Of a stretch of DNA of 64,000 nt, positions 51,410 to 58,160 are shown in pieces; position 1 is the first letter of the stretch, and each line of letters opens with the position of its first letter. A model generated the notes under the pieces. That model ran no database searches, was not told the DNA's origin, and saw only the letters and a list, made by a program, of their open reading frames with translations. This stretch comes from a virus. Its lineage: Duplodnaviria > Caudoviricetes. The stretch is from the IMG/VR virus record IMGVR_UViG_3300028886_000051. One strand, 5' to 3'. The position numbers were made by a program, and so were the translations under genes.

Positions 51410-52627
51410 TTATTTTTCAAATAAATCTGCGAACATTTTACTTGTTTCAGATCTAACATCTTCTCCAAGATAAATGCAGCCAAATTTTTCATTACCCTTG
51501 AATTCATTACACATCTTAATAAGAGGGTTATTAACCGTCTTAGTAAGCAATGACTGTTTATAATCACCAGAAAGATAAATGCGACTGTTTTCGCCAAGTC
51601 TAGTGCCAATTAGTCTAATTTGACTTTCTGATAAATCCTCTGCCTCGTCACAAAGAATAATTGTTTGATTATATGTAGTTCCTTTCATAAAAAAAGGGAC
51701 ATTCGTATCTAAAATGCCACTCATTTTTAAACTCTGCAACTCAAATTCTCCACCATTAAGCGATTGAGTTAATGGTTCAAAGAATTTACCAACTTTATCT
51801 TCGATATCACCAGGAAGATAGCCAATTTCTTTTCCCTCACCAGAAACTTCTCTAACACCAAGGATTTTACTTGCTCTACCTTTTTCTTGAACATTATATA
51901 AAGCCATTTGCATAGAAAGGTAAGTTTTTCCACTGCCATATCCACCTAAAATAGCAGCAATAGTAATATCTGGATTATTAAGAATATCTAACGCACATCT
52001 TTGTAATGAATTTTTAGCTTTGATATATCTTGATGATGGTAATTTTAAAGTAACAAATGCAAAACCATCGAATCTCATTTCCTTAAAAGTATTGTCATCT
52101 GTATTTTCGATAATCAGATATTCATTAACGTGCCAATCTGAATAATCAATATTTTGCATATAAAAATTAATTTTATCAGCATTACCACGAATAATTTTAT
52201 ACCCCTTATAAATTTCATTACCATCTTCACATATACTTTCAACATTTAATCCAAAAATCTTACTTGCAATCATTTTACAAGCAATATCATCTGTAACGAA
52301 AACAACATCCTTCATTGCATTTATAAATGCACAGCTACTAATTATTTTAGTATCAGGTGTTATTTCCATATTTTTTTCAAGTATGTAGTTTTCAATTGCG
52401 TTGTCATATACGATAACATCATATTTATCCGAATTATCATCAAGTAGATGCAAAGCTCTTCGTGCCTCATACTTTACTTGATCATCTTTGTTTCGAGATA
52501 CCTTGATATGCTCTAACTCTTGTAATGTTACAGAACTTATAATAAAATTTTCCTCAAATATTTTGTCCTGTAATTTTAAAATAGCATTAGTATCATAAAA
52601 TTTCATTGTACCGATGGTTTCAACCAC
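51410..52627 (-). CDS. phoH: PhoH-family ATPase with N-terminal PIN domain
   Basis: FYDTNA...LQELE...D.KI...TDD (PIN), then GGYGSGKT, GYLPG, DEAE, TRLGE.SR and GD..Q. Confidence 0.9.
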   Translation of the reverse strand: MVETIGTMKFYDTNAILKLQDKIFEENFIISSVTLQELEHIKVSRNKDDQVKYEARRALHLLDDNSDKYDVIVYDNAIENYILEKNMEITPDTKIISSCAFINAMKDVVFVTDDIACKMIASKIFGLNVESICEDGNEIYKGYKIIRGNADKINFYMQNIDYSDWHVNEYLIIENTDDNTFKEMRFDGFAFVTLKLPSSRYIKAKNSLQRCALDILNNPDITIAAILGGYGSGKTYLSMQMALYNVQEKGRASKILGVREVSGEGKEIGYLPGDIEDKVGKFFEPLTQSLNGGEFELQSLKMSGILDTNVPFFMKGTTYNQTIILCDEAEDLSESQIRLIGTRLGENSRIYLSGDYKQSLLTKTVNNPLIKMCNEFKGNEKFGCIYLGEDVRSETSKMFADLFEK

Positions 52628-52648
52628 CTTTCATTTTAAATTTCGTTC

Positions 52649-52819
52649 CTATCCAACGATTTTACTTTTTCTATAATTATTTAAAGCCTTTAAATTCTGA
52701 TAAGACTCAACCAGATAATATTTTGCATGACCACTATAAGTCTTTTTTACATTCTCATTTCCAACAAGTTTCCTCATTGCAAAAGCTTCTGTTTTGTTAA
52801 TTAATAAAATAATTTTCAC
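52649..52819 (-). CDS. Small hypothetical protein, ~55 aa
   Basis: Open frame ILLINKTEAFAMRKLVGNENVKKTYSGHAKYYLVESYQNLKALNNYRKSKIVG* after AAGGATGTG. Confidence 0.55.
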   Translation of the reverse strand: MKIILLINKTEAFAMRKLVGNENVKKTYSGHAKYYLVESYQNLKALNNYRKSKIVG

Positions 52820-52855
52820 ATCCTTAAATTTATTTCCTACAAAGTAGGATAGTAG

Positions 52856-52930
52856 TTGGAAATGTAGGATTTGAACCCACGACCTCCTGAACCCAAATCA
52901 AGCGTTCTAACCAAACTGAACTAATTCCCA
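52856..52930 (-). tRNA. tRNA-Pro(TGG)
   Basis: Acceptor TGGGAAT/ATTTCCA, D arm GTTC/GAAC, anticodon arm CTTGA-TT TGG GT-TCAGG, T-loop TTCAAAT. Confidence 0.88.
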
Positions 52931-52969
52931 AAATAAAAAATCCCATACCGAAGTATGAGATCCTTACTT

Positions 52970-53752
52970 AATATGAGCTGAGATATTTGACTCAATACAC
53001 TAACATCTACTGTAGTTGGACACAGTTTATCACACAAGCGATTAGCTTGTAGTTAGCAACAACACCGATTTTGACATAATCGGCAAACTCTTACCACAAA
53101 GTATTATAGATTTTCTTTCTGCACATTCTTCCTTGCGAGATTCATAGGTTGCAGCCTATTAGAGTTGCACGTACTTGTACTTTCTCACATAACACCTTGC
53201 GAGTGTTACATGTGTCCATATTACAGAACAATAAGTTGTTTTTCTCTCTGTGGTCGTACACACTTTTGCTTTTATATATTAAAAACTTTATTCTTGTTCT
53301 TTAATAATTTGTAATTTGATTTACCAAAAGTCTGTACTTATAAAATAGATGATGAGGTGTACATTTGACCATCCGTACCTTTTGAGTACAGCCCAATCGT
53401 CACCATCCTGTCTTCCTTGCTATCGGAATCCTTTATTACAAAACACCTATCTTTCGATTTAAGATATTTATATAATAATTTAAACAGCACTAATTCTTGC
53501 GGAACTCGTACCATTTAGACATGGATTATCCCCACATTTCTGTGTTAATACAGTACCTATCCCAAGATACCTACCCAACCATATTCGCCAACAGTCGTCC
53601 TTGAATAGAAGGTTAGGTATAAATCCTATGTGTTTTCTGTCAAACTATATTTCTATAGTCGCAGCTTTGTAATACGACAAAGCCACTTTATACATGTTAC
53701 CATGTTTATTTTTGAGATTTAACATCTCCTGATCCGAAACCAACCAGTCCTA
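52970..53752 (-). ncRNA. GOLLD-like giant ncRNA (~780 nt)
   Basis: ORF-free, GC-enriched, with many GCAA/GAAA-capped hairpins. GUACUCAAAAGGUAC, AGCAAAAGUG and 3' AUCUCAGC motifs recalled from GOLLD. Lies between tRNAs, followed by a UUCG terminator (~52962-52935). Confidence 0.7.
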
Positions 53753-53766
53753 CAAAAGTAGGAGAG

Positions 53767-53842
53767 TTGCTGAAGCACAGGAGTCGAACCTGCTATTACA
53801 TGGTTATGAGCCATGTGTGATAATCCGTTTCACTCGCCAGCA
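53767..53842 (-). tRNA. tRNA-Met(CAT), atypical
   Basis: Anticodon arm CATGG-CT CAT AA-CCATG and T arm GCAGG-TTCGACT-CCTGT. The acceptor stem needs a bulge (TGCTGGC vs GCTTCAGCA). Confidence 0.7.
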
Positions 53843-53930
53843 ATAATATATTTGAGAATAATCGGCAACCATACTGCCAGAACGGCAGTACAGCTACCAA
53901 TATAAGAAAAGAGTTAAGATGTATCTTTTT

Positions 53931-54390
53931 TGATACTTGTAAAAAAAGCTGAAATAATTTATAACTTTAACCAATTTGTGGAATTTAGATAAAATATAAT
54001 TCTTATACTTTAATGTAATAATATTATATTTATCTATCATTCATTATCATCTGAAATTTTATAATTTCATTTATTCATATTTTTAAACCAATTTTTTGAA
54101 AGAATCTTCTTTACTAAATTAATTTTACAAAGCGTGTCACAAATTGTTGTTTTTTACAAATTTTCAATATATCATATTAACAAATTAACGAGTAACAAAT
54201 CTGAATACGAATAATATCTAACAATTACCTATTATGTATGTAGTATTTAATCCATCATTATATTTACTTACTTGTTAATAATTAATAATTTAATATTATA
54301 TGGCTAATATCCAGCCTTGCAGCGTTATAGTTCATCTGCATCTGAACCGATTAACAATTATGAATCAATTCAGCTCTTTTACAAATACCA
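53931..54390 (-). ncRNA. Unnamed ~460-nt RNA closed by a long terminal stem, directly downstream of the 204-aa gene
   Basis: 54390-54369 UGGUAUUUGUAAAAGAGCUGAA pairs with 53953-53931 UUCAGC(U-run)ACAAGUAUCA, and pairing continues inward imperfectly for ~20 more bp. No ORF on the sense strand. Confidence 0.6.
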
Positions 54391-54420
54391 AATATGTAGA
54401 AGTAGAAGAAGTGAAGTGGG

Positions 54421-55035
54421 CTAAGCCACCACACATTCCTCGAAACTATCATTTATATCCCAATTTGGATCAAAATCCAGTTCTGTATTAATTAAAATTG
54501 AATCTAACTTTGTAGAAACTTCATCAGTTTCCTTTAATAACTTTTTATAAAGTCCTCGAACATCATTTCTATCAAAGTCAATCTTAGTTACTTCATTAAT
54601 CTTATAGTAATAACTTATCTGATTTCCATCAGTATTAAATTTATAGTCAGAAGCATTTTTAACCTTTTCACCAGATTTTATATTTGATAATGACTGTAAG
54701 ACTCTTGCAAATCCCTGTTTCTTTTTATTAAGGGCAATGGCAACATCAATATCAATTTCTGTTCTCATTTTTGCATCTGATATGATATTTGATAATTTTT
54801 CTTTTTCATTAATAACTTTAACAACAAAATCAATCAGATCATTTGGTGTAAAATCAACATCATATGGTTTCTGAACTTCAATTACTTCATCTTTTGCATC
54901 AGGATTAACCTGAGATTTTAAATGAGTTTCAACAGTCGAAACTACGAAATTCTTATTATTTAAATAACTATAAGCTGTTCCTAATAACTCATCTAAAAAA
55001 TTCTGATAACGAAATGCTTCCTTTAAATTCATCAT
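54421..55035 (-). CDS. Uncharacterised helical protein (loosely DIP1984-like), 204 aa
   Basis: MNLKEAFRYQN N-terminus and ..D.VS..LD...INT.L.F C-terminus. RBS AAAGGAG. Confidence 0.7.
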   Translation of the reverse strand: MMNLKEAFRYQNFLDELLGTAYSYLNNKNFVVSTVETHLKSQVNPDAKDEVIEVQKPYDVDFTPNDLIDFVVKVINEKEKLSNIISDAKMRTEIDIDVAIALNKKKQGFARVLQSLSNIKSGEKVKNASDYKFNTDGNQISYYYKINEVTKIDFDRNDVRGLYKKLLKETDEVSTKLDSILINTELDFDPNWDINDSFEECVVA

Positions 55036-55355
55036 AATAAAATTCTCCTTTTAATCTATCTATATTTTATATTTTTATTACAATTGATTATTCTCTGTTT
55101 TGTTTTGCAAAAAGATGATTTTATTGTTTTATATTCGGGACAGATAATGATACGTCTGCCCCTAGTATACATTTTAAACTTGCAAGCCCTTACTTATTAC
55201 ACGCATATGGCAAAGAGCGTGGGAGTTTACTAACGCAACTCTGCGCTTTCTTCCCTCCATATTACACCCATTAAGCCAAACACTGAAAGCCTTGATTTTA
55301 TTGACTTTTTGGTACATTTGCACAATTTAATTACACCAAAATTGTGCAAAAATAC

Positions 55356-58160
55356 TTATTTGAAATTCAATAAGAACTTATCTTTGTTCATTTTATATAA
55401 TAAATTTAATACTTTTCTTGTATATTTAGAAGGATTTAGAGATATTTTTTTTGAATTTCCGACACCAGTATCAAGAGAAAGTGCAACCTCAATTAATCTG
55501 TTAATGGTAACAATATTTCCAATTTTTATTTTTTTCAATTGTTCAACGACTTCTTTAGATTTTTCTACTAATAAATCAGAACAAGTTTCAGAATCATCAT
55601 AATATTTTAATTTTGTATTTTTTACATAATTGTCATATTCAACAATAATCGACATAATTTTTGTCATCTGTCTATCATGACCTCGACCATGTATTTTTAT
55701 AAAGAAATCAGAAACAGGAATAGTGTTAGAAGTAGAAGCATTTTGAATCTTATTTATCCAATCTTCAAGCCAGTTCATAGGACACAATAAGTCTCGATTG
55801 ATACGACTTTTAAGTTTGTTCTTTGATTCATCAATTTCCTCTTGTGGAAGTTCTTTACCATCTTTTGTATATTTAATTTCTCTTGTATATTTCATGAACT
55901 CAGGAAAATCATATTTCTTATACTTTGGTTTGCCTAAATCCGTATATCCAACAATTCTTTTAATACTCATACAAGGAAGTTTACTAATTCTATCAATCTC
56001 TTTGTTGCCATCAATTTCATATTCTCTTTTACACCCATCAATGATAACTTGTGCAAGAACGGACAGAATAATAAAATTATCATAAAGTTCTTTAAGTTTA
56101 TCTTCGTCTGGATTCTCTTTTTGTAATTCAGTCCAATAGTATGTCATTGCCAACTGAGCCAAATTACTTGAATACCCAATTCCCATGCGTGACTTTGAAA
56201 ATTTATTATCCATTGCAGCATAGTCCTTTTTTGTATTATTGTAGGTAATACCAGATTCTTGTAATGCATTCACAATAGTATAGAACTCTTTATAGCATCT
56301 TTCAGCACACTTAACCATTGTCGATTGATTTGTAACTAAGAAGAAATCGGAGTCAAAATCACAACCGTTTGCACGATCTTGTATATCTGTATGTATACAA
56401 TTAACCGCCATGATATTATTGCTAAATACAAAATATTTGTCCATTTCTTCTGAATAGACATTATGTAAATAGCATATATTGTTTGGAGAATTATGTGGAT
56501 TTCTAAACGCTGCAAGATATTCATTATTGTCAAAACGTTTAGTATAACATTGGATACAATTAGACTCTTGAGAAAGTGTCGAATCTTTTTCAAAATCCTC
56601 ACCAACAGAGTAGAGTAGAAGTGCATAAGGATTACCACATACGGTCAAGTTATCACCATTGACCATAATTTTTCCTTTACGCATTCTAAAGACATATTGC
56701 TTAATTATTTCTTTTTTTTCATATCGAAAGAATTTACTGTTGGCAAACTCATGATTCTGAGCATATAAATCAGCAAGCATTTCATAATGATTTACTTCAT
56801 TTGCATATTTTCTGAGAAATTTTTCAAACGCATCATTATCACGTTTAAGTAATTCAACATAATCAATGCTAATATGAGCAATATCTTTAACATCATCCTT
56901 TGTACATGGAAGAGTATTGACCATCTGATAGCTCAACTGCTGATATTGTCCCAACTTACTTGGATGATCCGTTTTAACAATGCCCCATACATCACCATCT
57001 GCATGAATTCTTTTACACCAATATTCATATGCTTCAGTAATATTACTGCCCATTAAATCTTGAAATTTTTTCCATTTAATCGCATTATCAGTAGTTATCA
57101 TCTTAATATCTTTCAAATAATGCCATTCACCAAACATATCTTGAACTTGGTATGTATTATAATCATATCCATTTTTTTTACACCAATCTTTGAAAAACTT
57201 TTGAAGATAGCTTTTAAAAGCACATGCCTTGAATAGATGATTTCTGAGCAAAGCCATCCCATTAATATATGATGGAAGAGAAAGATAATTAGGATCTGCT
57301 TCGATTAAAGCCATCCCGTCCCAAATTGTATTTTTTACCTGACGTTTTTCTTCGGTTACAACACATTTTTTTCGTTTTTCAATCACTTTTTCATTTTTAT
57401 TGGTTTCTTTATTTTTCTTTTTAACTTCAACTTCGTATTCTTCTGCCTTAACAACTTTTGTCATTGTTTCAAAAAAAGAATCCTGATCTTTGAGAATTAG
57501 AATATTCTCAACGGGTATATGAAGTGTACCAATAATGGTAGAAGTGGTAAGTGGTGCGTAAGCTGACATTTCAACGATTTTCGCATTATCATGGCTCATT
57601 TTATTCCCCAGTCCAATTGTCAACCAATCATATGCAATGTCATATAATTTACTATTTATGAAAATAACTTGTCCAAGTTTAGCTTTAGCACTTGTACGAA
57701 AAAGCATCTCATAATGAATTGTTTCTTCTTTAATTGTTCCGTCTTTGCGTTTACGCTTATATGTAACGTCAACACCATTTTCATAAAAATACTCTCGAAT
57801 TTCGTCTCGTGATTTTTCGTCATATAAGTCTTTTCTGTCTTCAACTTTTTGTAATGCCTGTTTAATACGTTCTTTGGAATCACCGTCAGTATTATTAAAT
57901 AACTTTTCCAATCGAACATGTTCATTATTGTATGATCTACTTCCAAATTCATAATCAAGACAAATTATATCTCGTGTGCTTTCATTTTTTTTACCAGATT
58001 TTCCTTTATAAATATTTAATCCATTTTTTTGCAAGAAAAAACTAAATAAGCTATTATTAAACATTGCATCAGTATATGTAAAATAATCTCTTGTACCAAG
58101 ATTTACGTCATATAACATTCCAGCACTAATGTTTTTTATTTTAATTCCATATTCACTCAT
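55356..58160 (-). CDS. YonO-like single-subunit phage RNA polymerase
   Basis: 934 aa with DGMALI, FRNPH and the catalytic NGCDFDSD (DxDxD) motif of double-psi beta-barrel polymerases. SPbeta-like context. Confidence 0.85.
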   Translation of the reverse strand: MSEYGIKIKNISAGMLYDVNLGTRDYFTYTDAMFNNSLFSFFLQKNGLNIYKGKSGKKNESTRDIICLDYEFGSRSYNNEHVRLEKLFNNTDGDSKERIKQALQKVEDRKDLYDEKSRDEIREYFYENGVDVTYKRKRKDGTIKEETIHYEMLFRTSAKAKLGQVIFINSKLYDIAYDWLTIGLGNKMSHDNAKIVEMSAYAPLTTSTIIGTLHIPVENILILKDQDSFFETMTKVVKAEEYEVEVKKKNKETNKNEKVIEKRKKCVVTEEKRQVKNTIWDGMALIEADPNYLSLPSYINGMALLRNHLFKACAFKSYLQKFFKDWCKKNGYDYNTYQVQDMFGEWHYLKDIKMITTDNAIKWKKFQDLMGSNITEAYEYWCKRIHADGDVWGIVKTDHPSKLGQYQQLSYQMVNTLPCTKDDVKDIAHISIDYVELLKRDNDAFEKFLRKYANEVNHYEMLADLYAQNHEFANSKFFRYEKKEIIKQYVFRMRKGKIMVNGDNLTVCGNPYALLLYSVGEDFEKDSTLSQESNCIQCYTKRFDNNEYLAAFRNPHNSPNNICYLHNVYSEEMDKYFVFSNNIMAVNCIHTDIQDRANGCDFDSDFFLVTNQSTMVKCAERCYKEFYTIVNALQESGITYNNTKKDYAAMDNKFSKSRMGIGYSSNLAQLAMTYYWTELQKENPDEDKLKELYDNFIILSVLAQVIIDGCKREYEIDGNKEIDRISKLPCMSIKRIVGYTDLGKPKYKKYDFPEFMKYTREIKYTKDGKELPQEEIDESKNKLKSRINRDLLCPMNWLEDWINKIQNASTSNTIPVSDFFIKIHGRGHDRQMTKIMSIIVEYDNYVKNTKLKYYDDSETCSDLLVEKSKEVVEQLKKIKIGNIVTINRLIEVALSLDTGVGNSKKISLNPSKYTRKVLNLLYKMNKDKFLLNFK

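Follow-up and report, generated by a model that had tools for sequence, protein, structure and literature searches.

An end-paired RNA and an uncharacterised protein family form an apparent two-part module in Firmicutes of the gut and rumen and in the large phages of these bacteria

The window analysed here is a stretch of 64,000 nucleotides from a phage of the Caudoviricetes (IMGVR_UViG_3300028886_000051), in which a non-coding block of ~470 nt lies 3′ of a gene for an uncharacterised protein of 204 amino acids (p204; 54421..55035, on the minus strand like all features described below). The GC content of the block is 16-19%, against a background of ~30%. A small hairpin, read from the sequence, spans the stop codon of the gene (54411..54434), and in relatives a matching hairpin of 8 uninterrupted base pairs surrounds the stop codon. 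Beyond the block lie a terminator-like hairpin with a U-rich tail (53855..53898), a tRNA-Met(CAU) gene (53768..53841) and a GOLLD RNA (52975..53767), the latter two being neighbours outside the module. The original prediction saw at this locus a protein with its cognate scaffold RNA, preceded by a GAGAATA motif; this motif does sit in a conserved promoter-like stretch, which is 5′ of the protein gene and does not adjoin the RNA.

The two ends of the block pair as predicted, and folding the minus strand of 53920-54400 to its minimum free energy (MFE) gives a structure closed by the same pairing. The pairing, first described as ~22 bp followed by ~20 bp of imperfect pairing, is in fact longer: two helices that total ~50 bp join 54394-54346 to 53977-53928. 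This closing helix, referred to as P1, has its 5′ arm at 54346..54394 and its 3′ arm at 53928..53977, the latter preceded by a conserved A-rich junction (AAAUUG), and RNAduplex recovered it in 17/17 phage-clade representatives at -39 to -62 kcal/mol. The minus-strand MFE of the region is -100.4 kcal/mol (z -5.45 versus shuffles), compared with -76.5 kcal/mol (z -3.56) for the plus-strand fold. Taken alone, the window duplex shows a modest gain over shuffles (z -3.4), and the evidence for an RNA duplex comes mainly from relatives rather than from the window by itself.

The claim that several G.U pairs work on the minus strand only was borne out in the window, whose arms contain 42 Watson-Crick pairs, 8 G.U and 1 A.C, and G.U pairs far outnumber A.C in the arms of relatives as well. 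A strand-symmetric DNA alignment of the arms of 92 non-redundant loci yielded 2865 Watson-Crick, 259 G.U and 65 A.C combinations, with G.U exceeding A.C in 69 loci and the opposite in 8, while the 17 representatives of the phage clade gave 145 G.U versus 13 A.C. By this sequence signature the block is an RNA, predicted to be transcribed on the gene strand (minus). Homologues with a conserved, end-paired downstream region, which the original prediction had proposed to collect, were found, and the region covaries among them. In the alignment termed A2, 90.5% of cells are paired versus 33-44% when the partners are slid, double changes occur in 33 of 62 pairs, and 0/500 shuffles reach any of these measures; P1 itself contributes 42 column pairs, which are 91.5-94.1% paired and include 24 with double changes. 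The P1 closing helix was found in all loci examined. RNAalifold on a global alignment of 44 sequences returned P1 and part of the first pseudoknot only, because the interior does not align, which is why its helices are described from visual inspection only.

The GC-richer islands noticed within the AU-rich block are real and correspond to a conserved pseudoknot (54347-54318) and a clade-specific second one (54316-54292). The former, PK1 (54318..54347), is of the H type, with stem S1 formed by 54347-54343 and 54334-54330 and stem S2 by 54340-54336 and 54322-54318. PK1 hardly varies within the family, which is partly by construction since the motif scans fixed most PK1 letters, and both of its helices covary. 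Among 77 variants, the first pair of S1 is GC in 65, CG in 8, UA in 3 and GU in 1, and an extra S2 pair is AU in 22, GC in 19, GU in 14, UA in 8 and CG in 2, with non-pairs in 12; in distant members S2 is wholly swapped. The second pseudoknot, PK2 (54292..54316), pairs 54316-54313 with 54305-54302 (S3) and 54311-54306 with 54297-54292 (S4), and double changes in A2 affect 6/6 pairs of S4 and 2/4 pairs of S3. As judged by eye, PK2 is confined to the AT-rich phage clade, and other clades place a GNRA- or UNCG-capped hairpin in its position.

Downstream of these elements lies a central tract of low structure with short CGUU/UUUGU-type repeats (54125..54210, alignment A2), which ends in a CGUUUCG-like box. 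Its counterpart in GC-rich relatives, whose interior is not AT-rich, is a G-poor, C-rich tract of ~80-110 nt, whereas the tract of the AT-rich phages is U/A-rich. Across 110 non-redundant loci, the 80-nt window lowest in G has a median G content of 11%, versus 23% for the whole element, with 31% C and a relative position of 0.38; the words CGCTT, TTTCG, CGTTT and CGCCA are enriched in the tract. Guide-like hypervariability was ruled out here, as close relatives conserve the tract as well as the rest of the element. Directly 5′ of the P1 3′ arm, a hairpin of variable sequence was recognised by eye (53978..54005); relatives have a hairpin in this position with other sequences and UUCG loops. The terminator-like hairpin after P1 (53855..53898; scan match 53879-53863) is conserved and covaries in alignment A1, and likely marks the 3′ end of the RNA unit; under a strict definition, a hairpin plus U-tail follows P1 in 30/103 loci and is thus not universal. 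At the other end, P1 starts 5-30 nt past the stop codon in many loci, which leaves no space for a separate promoter, and the RNA is probably co-transcribed with the p204 gene. In a few loci, the stretch that separates the gene from P1, or the element itself, contains a terminator-like hairpin or a hexamer resembling a -10 box, so that transcription units may differ from locus to locus. A possible internal promoter, a -10-like hexamer ahead of the first CGUUUC box, is clear in one locus (L189) and suggestive in some others.

When whole collections of DNA were scanned, the PK1 motif turned up in 46 contigs of viruses and in at least 120 contigs of bacterial genomes. In every scan locus with enough upstream DNA, a p204 homologue (31-65% identity) ends 50-200 nt upstream, the sole exception being a decayed gene remnant. 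Of the 46 viral loci, 45 have upstream DNA and a p204 homologue just upstream, as do 113/120 genome loci; the remaining seven comprise six without upstream DNA and one, L181, in which a 10-codon p204 remnant is left and the RNA has been kept after deletion of the gene. Searching from the protein instead revealed the end-paired block in at least 65/75 metagenome loci, with a strict PK1 in 35/75, covarying variants in ~11, and a long closing duplex devoid of an ORF in nearly all others; in at least one locus (L266) another gene lies directly downstream of the p204 homologue and there is no end-paired block. When the flanking ORFs of 110 loci were clustered, only p204 (104/110) and a helix-turn-helix (HTH) gene (49/110) recurred, and none of the other neighbours in the window is conserved among relatives. 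The comparative genomics of these loci thus reveals a strict linkage of RNA and p204.

The carriers of the pair are gut and rumen Firmicutes, including Faecalibacterium strains isolated from the human gut and cultured, and their large phages (~90-200 kb). The module is single-copy in 5/5 host genomes, occurs once in the phage genome, and was found in 2/151 sampled genomes of one family. In bacteria its surroundings are not those of a phage and differ between strains: in some strains it occupies variable chromosomal spots beside Fic, DMP19 and helicase/nuclease genes, and many loci lie among housekeeping genes. A convergent XRE-type HTH gene is located downstream in about half of the bacterial loci. 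Two further candidates for membership were rejected, namely a 103-aa gene beside the HTH gene, which is not homologous between loci, and the long C-terminal extensions of the HTH gene calls (110 to 203 aa), which differ between loci and are explained as read-through of an antisense strand with few stops.

No named RNA family could be assigned to the block originally, and this still holds for Rfam 15, since cmscan gave no match in the element of the window or of its relatives. Scanning 52500-55500 at E<=1 returned GOLLD at 53408-52975 only and nothing in 53928-54394, and ROOL, OLE, 6S, Y RNA, HEARO and the other Rfam 15 families were likewise without a match in the element (E<=1 for the window, E<=0.1 for relatives). 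The GOLLD hit covers the whole model (E 3e-24), although its 92.9 bits fall below the gathering score of 150; it corresponds to the 3′ domain, the 5′ domain being presumed upstream. The tRNA-Met was detected by Rfam with 39.2 bits and missed by ARAGORN. The earlier statement that the unit runs into a tRNA-Met and a GOLLD-like RNA is therefore correct in that both are present, but the adjacency is incidental: GOLLD is missing beside the module in most lineages, and in bacteria both neighbours are absent.

The partner protein belongs to a family of ~200-215 aa, for which a cut-off of E<=1e-3 gives 1004 cluster representatives and one of E<=1e-30 gives 428. No match to p204 was obtained in PHROG, NCBIfam or PADLOC, nor by tblastn in the INPHARED phage collection; Pfam gave only a sub-threshold Vps54_N match, and a PDB sequence search only tail-tube rows at E ~0.2. 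The atlas leads were DUF7873 and DUF6847, both unannotated. An AF2 model (pLDDT 93.6) has as its closest fold match 3kdq_A, a protein of unknown function (Z 11.5), besides which the fold searches retrieved only generic helical hairpins and no nuclease or toxin fold. All homologues are acidic (pI 4.8-5.4), and p204 matches no known RNA-binding domain or family. The AF2 model displays a conserved beta-hairpin in which Tyr, Phe and Lys are abundant, a feature that would be compatible with nucleic-acid binding. No description of either the RNA or the protein turned up in the literature searched, which is not proof of absence.

Taken together, the original prediction finds partial support. Its idea of a protein with a cognate RNA of no named family is supported by the fact that the pair travels together through otherwise unrelated genomic contexts; it is comparative genomics that argues for the two being cognate. 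As the same combination is found again in numerous bacteria of the gut and rumen and in their large phages, and has no match in Rfam 15, it looks like a new two-part RNA-protein module. We consider it probable that the block is a discrete structured RNA in a self-contained module with p204, most likely a ribonucleoprotein. Briefly, an RNA of ~470 nt would be transcribed from the same strand as the p204 gene, probably together with it. P1 would join both ends, enclosing PK1 at the 5′ side and then accessory hairpins, followed by a G-poor single-stranded tract of ~100 nt with CGUU-type repeats and a 3′ hairpin domain, often with a terminator after P1. In this proposal p204 would bind its own RNA during synthesis, with PK1 and P1 as the recognition core and the open tract as the working surface, and the module as a whole would be an accessory element of Firmicutes from gut and rumen and of their large phages, rare, present in single copy and spread by horizontal movement. 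The frequent convergent XRE-type regulator in bacteria suggests that the module takes part in conflicts between phage and host or in those involving mobile elements.

Two other explanations deserve consideration, each of which we regard as unlikely without being negligible. The RNA could be only a cis-acting 3′ UTR of the p204 mRNA, serving as a stability, processing or termination device or as an autoregulatory site, and would then have no independent function. An RNase III stem combined with a Rho-loading (rut-like) C-rich tract could, for instance, insulate the gene from the convergent HTH gene. Such a role would fit the start of P1 within a few nucleotides of the stop codon, the frequent terminator after it and the convergent gene downstream in about half of loci, and could likewise account for the strict synteny. 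Rut sites are classically C-rich, G-poor and weakly structured over ~80 nt, and the G-poor, C-rich tract of GC-rich relatives has this composition, but in AT-rich phages the tract is U/A-rich. Moreover, 300-560 nt with a near-invariant pseudoknot, GNRA-capped hairpins and a 50-bp helix far exceed the known needs of a stabiliser or terminator, PK1 is conserved far above the protein (down to 31-40% identity), and L181 retains the RNA after losing the gene. With a comparably low probability, the pair could be a toxin-antitoxin or abortive-infection module, a specific version of the ribonucleoprotein mode in which the RNA neutralises or licenses p204 by a type III-like pseudoknot-protein logic and phage copies act in counter-defence or superinfection exclusion. 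The rarity, patchiness (2/151 genomes) and single copy number of the module would agree with this, as would its presence in phages and in variable chromosomal spots near Fic, DMP19 and helicase/nuclease genes and the XRE-type regulator attached in about half of loci. Against it stand the lack of a PADLOC match, an RNA that is no array of tandem repeats and follows the protein gene (in type III systems it precedes the gene), the absence of a nuclease or toxin fold in p204, and the many loci among housekeeping genes.

The remaining two explanations are far less probable still. A DNA-level element, whether a cruciform, an origin of replication or a miniature inverted-repeat transposable element whose terminal repeats mimic a stem, would explain the inverted repeat pair of ~50 bp and the AT-rich interior with short direct repeats, but not the strand asymmetry of the arm mismatches (259 G.U versus 65 A.C) and the much weaker opposite-strand stem. 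Nor does it fit the single copy per genome, the constant placement behind members of one gene family whose proteins share 31-97% identity, the GC-rich relatives that lack an AT-rich interior, and the covarying internal pseudoknot; the single copy and the arms that are not strand-symmetric also led to the rejection of a miniature inverted-repeat transposable element as such. An equally poor candidate is an extension of the neighbouring RNAs, with the block as a divergent 5′ domain of GOLLD or as the leader of a transcript that carries tRNA-Met and GOLLD. The element does lie directly upstream of both in the window, tRNAs follow it in related phages, and GOLLD linkers are able to hold tRNAs (PMC12286853). 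However, GOLLD was present in only 1/7 related viral loci and 0/8 bacterial loci scanned, bacterial copies have no tRNA or GOLLD nearby, a terminator-like hairpin separates the element from the tRNA, and the ~790 nt downstream of tRNA-Met already make up a complete GOLLD, in line with the published layout of ~800 nt (PMC12286853).

The proposed ribonucleoprotein resembles several known systems without matching any of them. Like OLE RNA and its Oap proteins, it combines a large, ornate RNA of hundreds of nucleotides with an adjacent gene for a dedicated partner, and is confined to part of the Firmicutes. However, no Rfam OLE match was found, the partner is unrelated (no membrane or k-turn-binding protein), the 50-bp closing helix and long unstructured tract set the RNA apart, and OLE is a lineage-wide gene rather than a rare, also phage-carried accessory element. 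GOLLD and ROOL are likewise phage-borne, several hundred nucleotides long and equipped with pseudoknots, lie beside tRNA genes as the element does in the phage clade, and contain an internal linker that is poorly conserved and probably disordered (PMC12286853). They are RNA-only assemblies lacking a dedicated protein, whereas the present RNA is tied to one protein family, matches neither covariance model and is frequent in bacterial chromosomes too, at sites remote from tRNAs. Bacterial Y RNA and Ro60 (Rsr) offer a parallel in the long end-closing helix, the RNA encoded beside the gene of its bound protein (binding being our proposal here), the patchy distribution and the phage-borne relatives; in contrast, there is no TROVE/Ro protein and no Rfam Y RNA match here, and the RNA is 3-5 times longer and without a tRNA-like domain.

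Retrons also have end-pairing inverted repeats (a1/a2), which P1 recalls although this feature alone does not define a retron, and are rare accessory modules often near an HTH gene. Nevertheless, no reverse transcriptase occurs in the module, judging by the flanking ORFs of 110 loci and Pfam contexts, the RNA is downstream of the protein gene, and PADLOC gave no retron match. Type III toxin-antitoxin systems (ToxIN, CptIN) similarly pair a protein with an RNA whose pseudoknot could bind it and are accessory and phage-related, but their antitoxin RNA consists of short tandem repeats upstream of the toxin gene instead of a single downstream RNA of 300-560 nt, and the p204 fold is not ToxN-like. 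With the omega-RNAs of TnpB and IscB the element shares a structured RNA at or after the 3′ end of the partner gene and, in our proposal, assembly together with the protein. However, p204 is acidic, ~205 aa long and without a RuvC or HNH domain, and the single-copy module has no transposon ends and no variable guide-like segment among close relatives. It is conceivable, though we hold this more tentatively than the module itself, that the pair is the founding example of an unrecognised class of bacterial and phage ribonucleoproteins, consisting of a ~205-aa family with more than a thousand diverse members and a dedicated 300-560-nt RNA whose 50-bp closing helix, invariant pseudoknot and long open tract with repeats would define it, moving horizontally between Firmicutes of the gut and their large phages, acting in phage-host conflict and working by a mechanism unlike those of retrons, CRISPR, omega-RNA and type III toxin-antitoxin systems.

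To our knowledge, large structured bacterial RNAs with unknown roles have been few (OLE, GOLLD, ROOL, raiA and HEARO). Each of them opened new biology on closer study: HEARO proved to act as a guide RNA, while GOLLD and ROOL form RNA cages. The RNA described here would be a further large class, absent from Rfam 15 and with unusually clean comparative support. Its dedicated partner of no known family provides an immediate experimental handle, and its presence in cultured human-gut isolates and phages makes genetics and phage challenge feasible. Annotation of the p204 family would cover at least a thousand 50%-identity clusters, and annotation of the RNA would correct gene calls that run ORFs through it.

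The block that directly follows the gene for p204, a 204-aa protein, is closed by its own two ends. The original prediction had these ends pairing over ~22 bp and, imperfectly, over ~20 bp more; the pairing is real and longer than claimed, as RNAduplex gives a closing helix (P1) of ~50 bp in the window, in two helices (54394-54346 with 53977-53928). The minus-strand fold is closed by this end pairing (z -5.45), while the plus strand folds worse. Set alone against shuffled partners, the window duplex shows a modest margin (z -3.4), so the case depends on comparison with relatives. A p204 query retrieved 21 IMG/VR loci (38-65% identity), all 21 with the same low-GC block downstream, and a DNA pattern built on the most conserved stretch of that block matched 46 viral contigs of ~6-216 kb. 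In all pattern matches with upstream DNA, a p204 homologue gene ends 50-80 nt 5' of the motif, and 17/17 non-redundant representatives form a ~50-bp duplex (-39 to -62 kcal/mol) that encloses an element of 460-580 nt. With the homologues collected and their downstream DNA aligned, a conserved end-paired region with covariation was found to be shared, as had been anticipated.

In A2, an alignment of phage-clade representatives, the named structure is 90.5% paired versus 33-44% with partners slid by 1-3 columns; changes on both sides occur in 33 of 62 pairs, and none of 500 shuffles reaches any of five measures. Immediately inside the P1 5' arm lies PK1 (54347-54318, minus strand), an H-type pseudoknot whose first helix, S1, is GUUCA/UGAAC and whose S1 loop holds UGCAG; this forms the second helix, S2, with CUGCA 7 nt downstream. 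The first S1 pair of 77 distinct PK1 variants is G-C in 65, C-G in 8, U-A in 3 and G.U in 1, and an additional S2 pair, at a position left free in the search pattern, is A-U (22), G-C (19), G.U (14), U-A (8) or C-G (2), with 12 non-pairs. The near-invariance of PK1 is partly a product of the search patterns; in members found via the protein, S2 is swapped wholesale for other complementary sequences with the topology preserved. A second pseudoknot follows in the AT-rich phage clade (54316-54292, minus strand; 6/6 pairs of its helix S4 covary in A2), and other clades have at this position a hairpin, often capped by GNRA or UUCG, as read from the sequences.

The interior does not align globally, and its helices were therefore read by eye. 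Nearly all members share a G-poor central tract (lowest-G 80-nt window: median G 11% versus 23% element-wide, C 31%, relative position 0.38), with CGCUU, UUUCG and CGUUU as enriched words and, usually, a CGUUUCG-like box at its end; in the window it is a UUUGU/CGUU-repeat stretch (54210-54125, minus strand). Ahead of the P1 3' arm come at least one hairpin and a conserved A-rich junction (AAAUUG), and in the window a terminator-like hairpin comes after the arm (53898-53863, minus strand; 30 of 103 loci by a strict definition). Inside the element of one locus (L189:8740-8775), a near-consensus -35/-10 pair with spacing 16 stands just 5' of the first CGUUUCG box, with -10-like hexamers at the same place in several further loci; this spot may act as an internal promoter or be a single-stranded junction that is conserved. 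At L020:4640-4690 and in L078, a terminator-like hairpin right after the protein gene shares its 3' half and U-run with the first part of the P1 5' arm, so that this hairpin and P1 would exclude each other.

A slightly looser PK1 pattern matched at least 120 contigs in a one-genome-per-species collection, most of the matches listed being from Oscillospiraceae, Ruminococcaceae, Faecalibacterium, Lachnospiraceae and Selenomonadaceae, and a few being MAGs from other phyla. Among the matches listed, 113 of 120 genome contigs have a p204 homologue (31-61% identity) ending 50-200 nt upstream, with closing duplexes of -43 to -99 kcal/mol over spans of 290-560 nt. Six of the other seven have less than 230 nt of upstream DNA; the last, L181, is a decayed locus in which ~10 codons of the partner gene, its start codon altered, abut an intact P1/PK1, ~60 nt upstream of the pseudoknot. 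The RNA keeps a fixed place directly behind a single protein family, in contexts that otherwise share nothing: at the bacterial genome loci the window's remaining neighbours are not conserved, and all-against-all clustering of flanking ORFs at 110 loci found only p204 (104/110) and a convergent XRE-type HTH (49/110) to recur. Where Pfam annotation was precomputed, the bacterial surroundings are ordinary chromosome (transporters, ETF, LarA, HemN), some strains have variable genes nearby (e.g. Fic, DMP19, helicase/nuclease genes), and the same module stands beside different downstream genes in different strains. Public gene calls traverse the RNA at L194:4386-4997, L195:3455-3991 and L196:2395-3348, probably as annotation artefacts; the convergent HTH ORF is lengthened along the antisense strand, which has few stops, to 178-203 aa, and the L196 call reads through into the RNA to give a partner protein of 317 aa.

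A search of metagenomes for p204 relatives gave 511 coding stretches, of which 80 were kept and 75 have at least 150 nt downstream. Strict PK1 is found in 35 of these 75 loci and covarying variants in ~11 more; most of the remainder lack an ORF within reach and show a long closing duplex whose end lies 440-540 nt downstream, and at one locus (L266) the next gene follows directly. In a sub-family among this remainder (L231, L241, L251, L256, L260, L262, L273) the end-paired RNA follows the gene with a 5' domain lacking PK1, in whose place, within the first 200 nt, is a hairpin with a conserved AGCGAU loop; the outer P1 (CUGUUUUGGG-like) is similar to that of the PK1 type. The protein family comprises 1004 representatives (50% identity) at E<=1e-3 and 428 at E<=1e-30, nearly all of 200-220 aa. 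The module is rare, single-copy (in 5 host genomes) and patchily spread over bacteria and phages; in the family to which Faecalibacterium belongs, only 2 of 151 sampled genomes carry it.

The confident AlphaFold2 model of p204 (pLDDT 93.6) consists of long helices and two beta-hairpins, and its only structural match over a whole domain is an uncharacterised protein of Corynebacterium diphtheriae, 3kdq_A (Z 11.5 over 146 aligned residues, Foldseek probability 1.0). The whole family is acidic. In a beta-hairpin that is part of the best-conserved surface, Tyr, Phe, Lys, Asn and Gln are invariant or nearly so; we infer that this hairpin could contact nucleic acid.

The virus record (145,752 bp) has a low GC content (~30%), and genes in the region lie on the minus strand. 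Along that strand, a 934-aa ORF of unknown function (PHROG 8308), a spacer of 320 nt, the p204 ORF (55035-54421) and, directly after it, the block of 16-19% GC (54420-53900) are followed by a hairpin, tRNA-Met(CAU) (53841-53768; Rfam tRNA model, 39.2 bits), GOLLD RNA (52975-53767, conserved part 53408-52975), tRNA-Pro and genes for PIN-PhoH, a Clp-like protease and an exonuclease. ARAGORN did not detect the tRNA-Met, whose acceptor stem has mismatches. The PIN-PhoH fusion gene (51410-52627) comes right after the RNA and tRNA island, and L194, an unrelated bacterial locus, also has such a gene near the module. A GC-richer block of structured appearance in the spacer 5' of p204 (55100-55300, minus strand) contains a AUGNGUGUAAUA-like word twice, together with a clean hairpin near 55160-55135; L015 has a near-identical copy and the same spacer of L001, L003, L004 and L018 lacks it, which suggests an inserted small RNA or a mobile piece.

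The unit had been proposed to run into tRNA-Met and the GOLLD-like RNA. GOLLD, first seen downstream of tRNA-Met, is ~800 nt long, its 5' region being variable and its 3' region conserved (PMC12286853); by this layout it is complete between the two tRNAs, the ~360 nt from tRNA-Met to the GOLLD match presumably being its variable 5' domain, and the low-GC block is a separate entity. The match spans the full Rfam model (E 3e-24), but at 92.9 bits it does not reach the gathering score (150), and standard annotation would therefore overlook GOLLD here; a clean terminator lies 3' of it (52965-52936). A tie of the element to GOLLD or tRNAs is contradicted by its distribution, with GOLLD present in 1 of 7 related viral loci and in 0 of 8 bacterial loci scanned. 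A DNA-level feature fails as well, since an inverted repeat in DNA should decay symmetrically. P1 arms of the phage clade have 694 Watson-Crick, 145 G.U and 13 A.C positions, with arms picked on the gene strand; a recount by strand-symmetric local DNA alignment at 92 non-redundant viral and bacterial loci gave 2865, 259 and 65, with an excess of G.U in 69 loci and of A.C in 8. Judged from these mismatches, the end pairing is maintained in RNA transcribed from the gene strand, which bears out the predicted selection on minus-strand RNA; copy number also speaks against a DNA-level role.

A purely cis-acting 3' UTR is possible, and the rut-like composition of the central tract agrees with it, but the size of the element, its invariant pseudoknot and the persistence of the RNA beside a deleted gene point to more. 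The element has no Rfam 15 family and no description in the literature searched; a prior description is still possible. On comparative sequence evidence, it is a conserved, strand-specific, pseudoknotted RNA structure. Of the proposed protein and scaffold RNA, this structure and its strict place after the p204 family stand, whereas the physical association of p204 with the RNA, and a scaffold role for that RNA, are putative. Co-transcription with the p204 gene is likely, as P1 often begins a few nt after the stop codon. Taken together, the best-supported reading is a two-part module of RNA and protein, of a type as yet undescribed, which would have an accessory, conflict-type role in the bacteria and phages that carry it.
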